Origin: a virus
Lineage: Duplodnaviria; Heunggongvirae; Uroviricota; Caudoviricetes
Strand: one strand, 5' to 3'
Length of the DNA stretch: 46,425 nt
IMG/VR virus record: IMGVR_UViG_2511231131_000010
Below, in pieces: positions 24,001 to 27,000 of the stretch. Made by a program: the position numbers. Position 1 is the first letter of the stretch; every line of letters starts with the position of its first letter.

Positions 24001-27000
24001 AATGTTGTACGGACAGAATGACGCGATCCCCGCTTTCTGGGGTTCGGTCAGCGGCACCCGGATGTTTTTCTCCACCCATGCCAGAGCCTTGTCACGTTCG
24101 ATGGCATTAACCCGGTCGCATTTTTCCTTTGACAGCTTCATGCCAGGAATAACAGGCTTACCATCCACCAGAATGGCACCACGGCAGATGGTCCAGATCC
24201 CCGCACCATCACGGTATGCCGTGGTGTGGTTACCTTCCTTTTCATCCAGAAACTGGTCGAGGATTTCAGGCGCAGAAGCACCTGCACCAATCAGCGCCAG
24301 AACGGCAGCCGACAGGCCGTATTTTATTTTTTCGTTCATGGGGATTTATCGATTTCTAATCCCTTGATATGTTAGGTATATAATCCAACACTCATGGTCG
24401 CTCTCATAAACATATCCCTTGAGACGCAGCAGATTACAACAAATGAAGCCATATAAATGAACAGTAAAGAAAGTTTGCGCAGAAGATTTTTACAACTAAT
24501 GACAGAAAACGTTAAATCAGAGTTACTTCTTCTGATGGCAGATAATAACGAAGCAACAAGCAGCATTCTTGCAGACCCTTACGGTAAGATCTCACATAAA
24601 ACGCTGGATATTATTACCACAACATTAACACCGCTGATGCTTCAACGGCTGAAACATAATATCAACGCATGGGTTAATGAAGAATTAAGTCCTCCCTGCT
24701 TATGGGATTCTCGTTACGCATGTCAGCAAAAAATGCGAATTTTCAACTTACTATCACCAAAGCTCAGGTAGCCATAAAATCCTGCCCTTCATGGCATACA
24801 GGATTTCAATGGAATCACAATGACCAACTCTTGCACAGCTGTATCCCTGACTCCCCGACAACTCAGATTTTCAGTATCTGCTGCTATCTAAAGAGAAAGC
24901 GCACAAATGCAAGGGTCTTTCATCACGTCCTGTTATTGATTGCCTGTGACCTTTTCTTACCTCATGGAACGTTTTTTCAGTTAGAAATATTCATTTTACA
25001 ACCAGTTCGTATTGTTTATTCATCGACTACTCTCCCCGCGCCACCTTACGCTTATCTTCTTTAATCTTGAAATAAAGGTTAGTCAGATACGTCAGCAGGC
25101 CAAACAGCAGACTCCCCAGCACACCGATTGCCACCCACTGGGACGGAGAGACTTTGTCCAGCAGCTGCAGTAACCAGTATCCCGTCCCCACCGCTGACGT
25201 GGTGTATGACACACCCGTTGTGATTTTTTCCATCTGATGTATGTCTCCGTCACCGCCGACAGAAAATGAAAGTAAAGAAAAACAAAAAAACCGCCAGTGT
25301 CACCCACTGACGGCCAACTCCGGGAGCCGTGATTATGGCATTCAGGCTCTGCTAAAAATGCCAGATAACATTCCGGCCTCCCCTGATTCAGGTTATAAAT
25401 GACACAATATCTTGACAACACCCGTCACTGTCTGTCAGAAAATATACCGCCAGGCATAAGTATCATGTGAAATCCAACTATCCTTCTGAGCCAGCACCTC
25501 TCCACCGAAAGTCAGTGCTGGCTGTTTTTTTCCTTAATAAAGCATCTGTAACTGAAACAATCCGCATATTGATAATATATTGACAGGCATCATTGCTGTC
25601 TGTGAAAAATAAGTCTCTACAAACATATAAGGCCTTTTAGCCAGCGTCTTCTTTCAGGTCAGTCGCTGGCTCTTTTTTTATTATGCTGCCGGTGCATTTA
25701 TCTCCAGCACCAGACTTTCTATCTCAACGCCATACGCTGCATTTTTTGTAACATCCGTCAGCGTCAGCGCATTCAGTCCCAGTGTCAGACTGTCTTTTAT
25801 AACCTGGAATGCCGGACCAGCCACTCCATTCAGTTTCGGAGTAACCGTGGCACTGCCGGCGGTGAACACCAGCTCCAGCGTCTGCCAGTCGTTACCGTAA
25901 TCGCCGAACTCCCCCAGCTTCGTGTTTCCGGCTTTCCTGTGATGCATCAGATTCACTCTGCCGTCAGTGGTCTGAGTGAAGTACGACATCAGGAACGGAT
26001 TACCAGTACCCGTCATCGCCACACCATCAGGAACGGGAGCATCCGTATACAGATAAATCCCCAGCCCGAACTGATTGTTGGTCAGTGCGCCTGACAGGCG
26101 GAACTTACAGGTCAGTCTGCCGCCCTGTGTCAGCAGGGTAATTGCGTCATCCACCGGATGCGTCAGGGACCAGGTTTTATTGCTCTGCTTGGTGATCTTA
26201 AATACACCATCTGACAACTGAATTCCGCCATCCTTAATGCTCCAGCCCTGCGCAGCAGCCTCTCCGGCTGCCGGCAGCAGGGAGATTGTGCGAACGGACG
26301 TATCTGCAGACGGACCCGATGGCGTGTTGCCGCCGGGCGAGGGTTTGATTTCCGGTGCCTTACCACTGATGAAGGCTGAGGTGCGCCCGGCTGCGTTCAG
26401 AATAGCGGTTGCCAGACGATCCGGAATAATGCTCCTGCGCGCCCATGAACTGAAATGTGTCGGGCGGTTTGATGATACCTGGTTTCCATTCGTTCTCGAT
26501 GCCGCACCGTAATATCCTGATGCCGGAATATCCGGATCTTCTGCCGGCGCGTTAGTGGCGGTATTGACGCCGTTACCGTCTGTCATGAAGGGCACAAAAT
26601 AAACGCCCTCACTCTCCCTGTTTTTATACCCGCCGTACACGGTGTCGTACTGGGTAGCGTATGTATTTTTCCAGTAATACGTCGTGTCACCACAAACCCA
26701 CGGCACATCTGCAGCACTGCCACCATGGCACTGCGCGTTAAACACGGAGAGGTCAGCACGAAACTGTGTCAGCATGGCTGTAAACAGCGCAGGTTGCTGT
26801 GCGTGGGTGGCGGCGCTCATGTCAAACTCACCCTGCATCCAGCAGACGGCCAGCAGAACGTTTTTGGGATTTTTCTGCAATGCCGCTTTTGTGCGGGAAA
26901 TCAGATCCTGATATAACGGCTTGCCCACCCCCCAGCGTGCCGAATCCTGACTGGCCCCCGTGGACTCGCTGAATGTCCCCTCCGCGCCCTGGGTAAATGC

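Follow-up and report, generated by a model that had tools for sequence, protein, structure and literature searches.

The spacer between the esterase gene nanS-p and the holin gene S in the caudoviricete genome IMG/VR IMGVR_UViG_2511231131_000010, analysed here as a stretch of 46,425 nt (hereafter, the window), very probably carries two tandem, paralogous genes for Hfq-binding, trans-acting small RNAs (sRNAs) that are transcribed against the late operon. Each gene is made up of a promoter-like element and an intrinsic terminator, both on the plus strand. Unit 1 (promoter-like element P1, 25412–25446; terminator T1, 25489–25531) belongs to the PasA family, and unit 2 (P2, 25580–25613; T2, 25639–25679) coincides with a region reported as EcOnc52. 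The feature is thus already known, as PasA/EcOnc51 and EcOnc52. What appears slightly new is the standing of unit 2, which, to judge from its sequence modules, would be a previously unrecognised paralogue arranged in tandem with PasA and equipped with a second copy of the promoter element, and the reading of PasC as a likely fusion of modules of the two unit types. In enterohaemorrhagic and enteropathogenic Escherichia coli (EHEC and EPEC, respectively), PasA-type RNAs rank with the most abundant accessory sRNAs bound to Hfq, and Shiga toxin (Stx)-type prophages carry up to nine copies per genome. The RNAs contact both virulence and core mRNAs, which makes them part of the prophage rewiring of host regulation.

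In the scheme that we propose, both sRNA genes would lie on the prophage strand opposite the late operon, so that their expression would be independent of Q antitermination and possible in the lysogen. Each gene would have a promoter of the sigma-70 type and a Rho-independent terminator that would double, through its stem-loop and U7 tail, as the Hfq-binding module. Unit 1 would give rise to an 85-nt PasA-family RNA, with a minority of transcripts reading through T1 and ending at T2 (approximately 233 nt), and unit 2 would give rise to a 66-nt RNA (EcOnc52). Both RNAs would pair in trans with host and prophage mRNAs through limited base-pairing on Hfq. The PasA seed would be part of the PasA terminator, in the 5′ arm, and the mRNA of the adjacent nanS-p would offer one target site at its 3′ end.

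Unit 1 and the PasA family

PasA was found in EPEC E2348/69 by ligation and sequencing of interacting RNAs (RIL-seq), where it was validated by Northern blot, depends on Hfq and takes part in 41 interactions (Pearl Mizrahi et al. 2021, PMC8550237). It is oriented opposite to the flanking esterase and holin genes, and Table S6 of that study gives its coordinates as 743499 to 743415 (85 nt, the major form) or to 743264 (236 nt, the minor form), with the remark 'homologues in EHEC (EcOnc51/EcOnc52)' (PMC8550237). The reverse complement of the PasA Northern probe listed in the same table matches the plus strand of the window exactly at 25498–25522 (0 matches expected by chance), and alignment of the E2348/69 locus places the 85-nt PasA at 25447–25531. 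The EPEC RNA and unit 1 are identical at 74 of 85 nt; all 11 differences fall within the first 41 nt, and the 3′ 44 nt are 100 per cent identical. Zhu, Shabalina, and Storz (2026, bioRxiv 10.64898/2026.05.13.724894) describe a second common variant, PasA-2, whose 3′ end is the same and whose divergence lies in the first 40 nt. Unit 1 is probably this variant, since it fits the published description.

Window positions 25380–25700 are identical to prophage Sp12 of E. coli Sakai. In this strain, cross-linking and analysis of cDNAs (CRAC) with Hfq yielded the clusters EcOnc51 (in Sp12) and EcOnc52 (in Sp4) (Tree et al. 2014, PMC4104026, Table S2). Provided that the coordinates of Tree et al. apply to the current Sakai record, as the mapping of both clusters assumes, EcOnc51 corresponds via alignments to 25475–25551, which is the terminator half of unit 1. 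In the gene order reported for the family (Zhu, Shabalina, and Storz 2026), a sialic acid esterase gene and a holin gene flank PasA or PasC, and an RNA of the PasD/STnc100 type lies upstream of the esterase; the surroundings of unit 1 match this order exactly. In all, unit 1 shares with the PasA/PasC family its sequence homology, its location between esterase and holin genes on the opposite strand, its 3′ stem-loop with a U-tract and its seed.

Published experiments on identical or near-identical sequence have demonstrated the existence and sizes of these RNAs, their Hfq-dependent stability and their Hfq-mediated chimeras with mRNAs. Taken from such copies, the Northern, RIL-seq and CRAC data indicate that unit 1 should produce a discrete, Hfq-stabilised RNA, the window copy being presumably equivalent to the copies studied. 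The first-pass annotation of this DNA, made from the sequence alone, had proposed short plus-strand transcripts of approximately 60–100 nt, and this is borne out by the documented 85-nt PasA for unit 1 and by the corresponding EcOnc52 cluster for unit 2. Its description of the two as antisense sRNAs holds for their position, whereas the published evidence is of Hfq-mediated pairing in trans (RIL-seq chimeras). A read-through transcript from P1 to T2 would span 25447–25679 (plus strand, 233 nt) and, by alignment, would be the counterpart of the 236-nt 'minor' form of EPEC.

The PasA seed, GCCAGCACCU (Fig. S5 in PMC8550237), lies at 25490–25499 and overlaps the 5′ arm of T1. A site complementary to it, CUGGUGCUGGA, is found near the 3′ end of the nanS-p coding sequence (25703–25713, minus strand), with an 8-nt perfect match (CCAGCACC/GGUGCUGG). 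In EPEC, E2348C_0688 and E2348C_1246 carry this site too, and there it ranks among the top PasA targets with the motif in RIL-seq (Table S7 in PMC8550237). Across loci, no co-variation between the PasA seed type and the adjacent nanS-p site was detected, each seed type being found with both alleles of the site. Within the window, trans targets for the 5′ parts of the two RNAs gave best duplex energies no better than those of shuffled queries.

The repeated promoter-like element and the two terminators

Direct reading and a script agree that a 30-bp element, TTGACA-N10-CTGTCTGT-[C/G]A[G/A]AAA, occurs twice on the plus strand, from 25412 and from 25580. The first-pass annotation had placed the repeat at approximately 25412–25446 and 25580–25613 and had recognised its TTGACA and CTGTCTGT blocks; the gap between them, given there as N11, is N10. 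P1 consists of a −35 TTGACA (25412–25417), CTGTCTGT (25428–25435) and CAGAAAATATA (25436–25446), and P2 of a −35 TTGACA (25580–25585), CTGTCTGT (25596–25603) and GAAAAATAAG (25604–25613). The ungapped 30-nt pattern, which was itself derived from these data, has two matches in the window against 0.03 expected, and a pattern scan of all 46,425 nt returned no third copy. In the ungapped register, P1 and P2 are identical at 28 of 49 positions. The identity is concentrated in AATAT-TTGACA and CTGTCTGT-nAnAAA, whereas almost nothing is shared in the first 10 nt of the spacer (1/10 identical).

In an 18-bp register, both units read TTGACA-N15-TGT-[C/G]A[G/A]AAA, with a 6/6 match to TTGACA at −35. The −10-like hexamers are then CAGAAA (25436–25441) in P1 and GAAAAA (25604–25609) in P2, with the A at −11 and the extended −10 TG present and no T at −7; in P1, the TGT that ends CTGTCTGT (25433–25435) fits the extended −10 motif TGn. 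Alternative registers of 19–20 bp give GAAAAT (25438–25443, 20-bp spacer) in P1 and AAAAAT (25605–25610) in P2. The 18-bp register puts position +1 at 6–7 nt after the hexamer, in agreement with both the EPEC PasA 5′ end (25447) and the start of the EcOnc52 cluster (25614). P1 ends directly at the aligned 5′ end of EPEC PasA, and that end, derived from RNA-seq coverage, falls 6 nt past the 18-bp-register hexamer. Furthermore, two natural variants alter position 3 of the hexamer alone (G to A in unit 1 and A to G in unit 2), which fits the 18-bp register better than the (G/A)AAAAT register. From these sequence features, we infer that P1 and P2 are sigma-70-type promoters with a perfect −35, an 18-bp spacer, an extended −10 TG and a weak, A-rich −10.

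Among IMG/VR loci that were gathered by terminator sequence, and hence independently of the promoter, the element is kept in 70/70 unit-1 loci and in 86/89 unit-2 or PasC-type loci (the latter type is described below), and variation within its copies is limited to the first part of the spacer. This conservation is stronger evidence for the element than its count in the window.

Both elements are followed by strong hairpins with T-runs, at a distance of 42 nt in unit 1 and 26 nt in unit 2, within the range of approximately 25–45 nt first proposed. T1, the terminator and putative Hfq-binding module of unit 1, folds into a stem (25489–25523) followed by G and U7 (25525–25531), and T2 into a stem (25639–25671) followed by C and U7 (25673–25679), which ends 1 nt short of the nanS-p stop codon. 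The two hairpins are present in minimum-free-energy folds (with a z-score of −3.7 for the unit-2 fold). On the minus strand, they are followed by CAGAAGG and AAAAGGCC, respectively; since neither is a U-tract, T1 and T2 are one-directional and, as anticipated in the first-pass annotation, have no late-strand U-tract. Across PasA, PasC, 'type 3' and unit-2 variants, 97.5 per cent of the cells of the nine-pair terminator stem are paired, and compensatory changes occur at three stem pairs (C-G to U-A; A-U to G-C; C-G to U-A or U-G).

Unit 2 and the alternative readings

The sRNA predicted from unit 2 (EcOnc52) would comprise 66 nt (approximately 25614–25679, plus strand), with a 25-nt single-stranded 5′ part, UCUCUACAAACAUAUAAGGCCUUUU, followed by T2. 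The EcOnc52 coordinates in Sakai Sp4 correspond to window positions 25614–25691, and the cluster starts 5 nt after the P2 hexamer. In EPEC, where the unit-2 region is named pasA.E2348C_0688.IGR, it is counted as part of the 236-nt PasA form, of which it makes up the 3′ portion. Its 3′ (terminator) end is the second (sRNA-side) RNA in Hfq chimeras, for example with escD (PMC8550237). Unit 2 has therefore been recorded before, though solely as a cluster lacking validation or as a PasA extension. Zhu, Shabalina, and Storz (2026) state that copies of pasA are never tandem duplicates and leave the adjacent unit-2 neighbour unmentioned. Unit 2 has promoter and terminator modules that are clearly paralogous to those of unit 1, PasC has a unit-2-type terminator and EPEC has the 236-nt read-through form.

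The alternative that survives best, which we consider possible but doubtful, is that the region contains a single gene. P1 would drive PasA, unit 2 would be an extension arising by read-through of T1 (possibly a processed, Hfq-bound 3′ fragment), and P2 would be the decaying relic of a duplication. The listing of the unit-2 region within a 236-nt minor PasA form with the same 5′ end (Table S6 in PMC8550237) is what such a gene would produce. The RIL-seq interactions of unit 2 are also far fewer than those of PasA (5 versus 41), and EcOnc52 has no Northern validation and was perhaps assigned to Sp4 through a multi-mapping artefact. A decaying P2 is, however, at odds with the retention of TTGACA, TGT and an A-rich hexamer at the P1 spacing even though the first 10 nt of the spacer have diverged, and with the persistence of P2 in 86 of the 89 terminator-anchored loci. 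P2 also stays with unit 2 at loci that lack unit 1, both on plasmids and at several different rearrangement junctions, and the position of the EcOnc52 cluster start just past its hexamer likewise argues for a promoter of its own. We favour two genes, in which P2 would fire independently of P1.

Several observations weigh against two genes with these promoters and functions. A generic promoter scan called neither P1 nor P2, whose −10 hexamers fail its criteria and have no T at −7, where one is usual. The register with a 19–20-bp spacer and (G/A)AAAAT may be the one in use. The reservation attached to the non-canonical −10 hexamers from the outset thus still applies, most of all to unit 2. Zhu, Shabalina, and Storz (2026) state that the 5′ end of PasA may come from cleavage of a longer transcript, and make no mention of a promoter for pasA; the cleavage idea is countered by the long PasA form, which differs at the 3′ end and not at the 5′ end (Table S6 in PMC8550237). 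The population sampled is shallow (mostly 92–100 per cent identical), so the invariance of the promoter is supportive but modest evidence. Unit 2 is identical in several Sakai prophages, so that CRAC reads are not assignable to the Sp4 copy, which is truncated by an insertion sequence (IS). The assignment of EcOnc52 to Sp4 may therefore be a multi-mapping artefact and is no proof that P2 fires, and the edges of CRAC clusters are not RNA ends. The IS629-truncated Sp4 locus was downgraded as a natural test of P2 on the same grounds, because its reads are perhaps multi-mapped. Finally, regulation of targets by PasA or EcOnc52 is putative.

A role in cis would involve a third terminator. Directly upstream of the S ribosome-binding site, an intrinsic terminator on the late strand (25279–25315, minus strand) with an 11-bp stem and a T-run was identified by a terminator scan and is annotated in phage 434. 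It is conserved in most loci compared and provides context, being separate from the plus-strand units. This terminator would block non-antiterminated nanS-p transcription before the lysis genes, and it turns the whole spacer into a nanS-p 3′ untranslated region (UTR) of approximately 390 nt that is antisense to both sRNAs. It is conceivable, though in our view unlikely, that the convergent units and this terminator serve to insulate S-R-Rz from un-antiterminated nanS-p transcription and that trans targets are secondary. Such an effect could come about by transcriptional interference, or by RNase III cleavage of duplexes formed with the 390-nt nanS-p 3′ UTR or the late transcript. Both RNAs are indeed fully complementary to the nanS-p–S spacer of the late transcript, and the late-strand terminator before S is both conserved and annotated. 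An Hfq-associated late-strand RNA from the PasA–holin spacer was recovered from uninduced EPEC (798 chimeric fragments in a non-activating condition; PMC8550237), and the arrangement resembles the 'convergent sRNA pairs' described downstream of PR′. The sRNAs, however, overlap only the spacer, stopping short of the ribosome-binding sites and coding sequences of S and nanS-p, and no experiment ties them to lysis timing or nanS-p expression. Moreover, plasmids that have neither S nor an intact nanS-p still keep unit 2, single-unit PasC-type loci are common, and published trans chimeras are abundant.

Slightly less credible again is the reading of the conserved blocks as overlapping divergent promoters, with the reverse complement of CTGTCTGT (CAGACA) as the −35 and the AATAT block as the −10 (TATATT or GATATT), which would drive a late-strand RNA antisense through PasA to the terminator before S. 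The promoter scan does report CAGACA-17-TATATT (25602–25574, minus strand; 9/12 matches) overlapping P2, and a weaker equivalent in unit 1, CAGACA-18-GATATT (25435–25406, minus strand), overlaps P1. Divergent promoters would explain why CTGTCTGT and the AATAT blocks are conserved between the paralogues but the rest of the spacer is not, and a late-strand RNA exists in the EPEC spacer. Promoter-like matches in this region are, however, no more frequent than in shuffled sequence (2 found, 2.6 expected), and the −35-like hexamer is weak. The list of Tree et al. contains no late-strand Hfq cluster in the Sp12 spacer, and the late-strand RNA of EPEC is explicable as nanS-p read-through.

The possibility that the resemblance to sRNA genes is due to chance, with generic terminators that only shield nanS-p from stray antisense transcription and no discrete RNA of any consequence, could appeal to the non-canonical −10 hexamers and to the absence of an Rfam family at the spacer, but it is ruled out for unit 1 by the published Northern (with an exactly matching probe) and RIL-seq data and is rendered negligible overall by Hfq-CRAC clusters on identical sequence, the multi-copy locus in 691 genomes and the compensatory stem changes.

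Distribution, genomic setting and comparison with known systems

The tandem sRNA locus is widespread in E. coli: its 321-bp block was found in 691 of 5426 complete genomes, at 3284 places (median of 5 per genome, maximum of 9), 103 of which are on plasmids. When one genome of each bacterial species was scanned for the exact pattern, 17 loci emerged, and only E. albertii had a real tandem locus; as 17 is close to the number estimated by chance for 18 specified bases, we rejected the element as a widespread regulatory motif. Four architectures were distinguished in IMG/VR, namely the tandem form (the majority), a single-unit PasC type, a single-unit 'type 3' and unit 2 alone, with the unit-2-alone loci adjoining rearrangement junctions or IS629. 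The transcribed 5′ part of PasA exists as several mosaic haplotypes, and the two major ones have 11 differences in the 5′ 41 nt.

On large plasmids of Shiga toxin-producing E. coli, unit 2 with its element and a remnant of the nanS-p 3′ end stands alone beside uilS and IS elements. One example is pCFSAN027346-1 (locus L008, 2501–2672), and there are about 100 other plasmid places. This plasmid copy is 90.8 per cent identical to the window, with the element unchanged and a G-U-compatible substitution in the terminator stem. Insertions of IS629 or IS1203 recur in the spacer (locus L126 of IMG/VR; locus L006, which is Sakai Sp4); one lies 20 nt upstream of the P2 −35, with unit 1 removed, and the other lies just downstream of P2, with unit 2 disrupted.

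PasC, from EPEC prophage PP5, resembles unit 1 in having the same promoter element, a homologous 5′ region and a position beside the esterase stop codon. It differs in forming a single-unit locus and in its 3′ 37 nt (UUUUAGCCAGCGUCC...GGGCGCUGGCU), which constitute a unit-2-type terminator and are identical to the unit-2 terminator of a tandem locus (L089). The junction falls within a TTTTAGCCAGC stretch that is present in both units. On this sequence comparison, PasC looks like the PasA promoter/5′ module fused to a unit-2-type terminator, which would have occurred via a deletion between the repeated TTTTAGCCAGC stretches. PasC itself is absent from the window, where the PasC probe has no match.

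One may speculate further that the conserved element also fires divergently, giving a late-strand RNA that is antisense to PasA and stops before the holin gene, that unit 2 is autonomous and that PasC is a recombinant, a combination that we put forward tentatively and do not expect to hold in full. If true, a tandem pair with divergent firing would be an sRNA module coupled to the insulation of lysis genes in lysogens. Of more immediate use are a precise promoter proposal and a simple recombination model for PasC. The paralogy of unit 2 also matters for the design of deletion and complementation experiments, as removing 'pasA' may leave or remove a second sRNA.

The genes that surround the two units form a lambdoid, Stx-phage-like late region on the minus strand of the window, in the order three tRNA genes, an STnc100-type RNA, nanS-p, the 447-bp spacer, S, R and Rz. 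The nanS-p gene (25681–27531) encodes a SASA-family sialate O-acetylesterase of 616 aa, as identified from the list of open reading frames (ORFs) and the annotation of near-identical records. S (25027–25233, minus strand) encodes a class II holin (pinholin) of 68 aa (ORF list; PHROG holin families, E = 2e-39; record annotation), and R (23806–24339, minus strand) encodes the endolysin. The spacer is 95–99 per cent identical to those of phage H-19B, phage 434, YYZ-2008 and many Stx1a phages. In OL657226.1, a record of phage 434 annotated by hand, the spacer bears three terminators, two opposite the late genes and one on the late strand before S, and no RNA gene annotation. Just upstream of nanS-p, STnc100 has a full-length Rfam match (27754–27944, minus strand; 137.7 bits); Zhu, Shabalina, and Storz (2026) connect STnc100 with the PasD sRNAs, which occupy this position.

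The three consecutive tRNA genes (28024–28270, minus strand; one of them weak, at 33.8 bits) lie downstream of the Q/PR′ region, and no stx genes are found between them and nanS-p. The S–R gap is unusual in its length of 687 bp (24340–25026) and contains a plus-strand ORF (24457–24771, 104 aa) that matches phrog_1853, of unknown function (E = 3.5e-47, profile positions 57–158 of 159). This ORF is an oppositely oriented moron gene with a possibly truncated N-terminus. Beyond Rz, a plus-strand hairpin followed by a T-run (AAAAAGCGACCACTAAAGTCGCTTTTTCTT, 22160–22190) is a possible further terminator opposite the late genes. Elsewhere in the window, neighbouring matches to the Rfam families C4 antisense RNA (75 bits) and isrK (62 bits) at 36777–36962 (minus strand) mark a P1/P7-type c4 immunity module, known from Gifsy-type prophages.

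Among phage-encoded sRNAs of similar design, AgvB and AsxR (RF02702 and RF02703) are likewise short, Hfq-binding RNAs of lambdoid prophages that are transcribed against the late operon and combine a conserved 3′ module with a variable 5′ part. They differ in their length (51–60 nt), in their sequence and in their location downstream of PR′, with moron or stx genes on one side and the next ORF on the other. We rejected them as identities for the two units, as they have no match at the gathering threshold in the window and none with E ≤ 10 in 24300–25900, and occupy another position; no Rfam family at all reaches the gathering threshold or E ≤ 10 in 24300–25900, PasA itself having no curated entry in that database. 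HnrS (EcOnc10–12) resembles unit 2 as a 66-nt, multicopy (up to nine), Hfq-associated RNA that EHEC and EPEC prophages encode in their late region (Poudyal et al. 2026, PMC13502914). It has another locus and another sequence, and the HnrS region of Sp12 is without a match here, so the identity was rejected. EcOnc09 of pO157 was rejected as a plasmid copy of unit 2, the sequences being unrelated.

The OOP RNA of phage lambda, likewise short and antisense to a neighbouring phage gene, is made constitutively from a promoter of its own and ends at its own intrinsic terminator; it overlaps the 3′ end of the cII coding sequence and acts in cis through RNase III. The unit RNAs, in contrast, overlap the intergenic spacer only, and the evidence for them is of trans action on Hfq. 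The closest counterparts are PasA/PasA-2 and EcOnc51, with which unit 1 shares its position, strand, 85-nt length, seed and terminator, the EPEC reference PasA differing from it at 11 positions in the 5′ 41 nt. Unit 2 coincides with EcOnc52 and pasA.E2348C_0688.IGR, and differs from both as described to date in the copy of the promoter element seen here and in its stand-alone occurrence.

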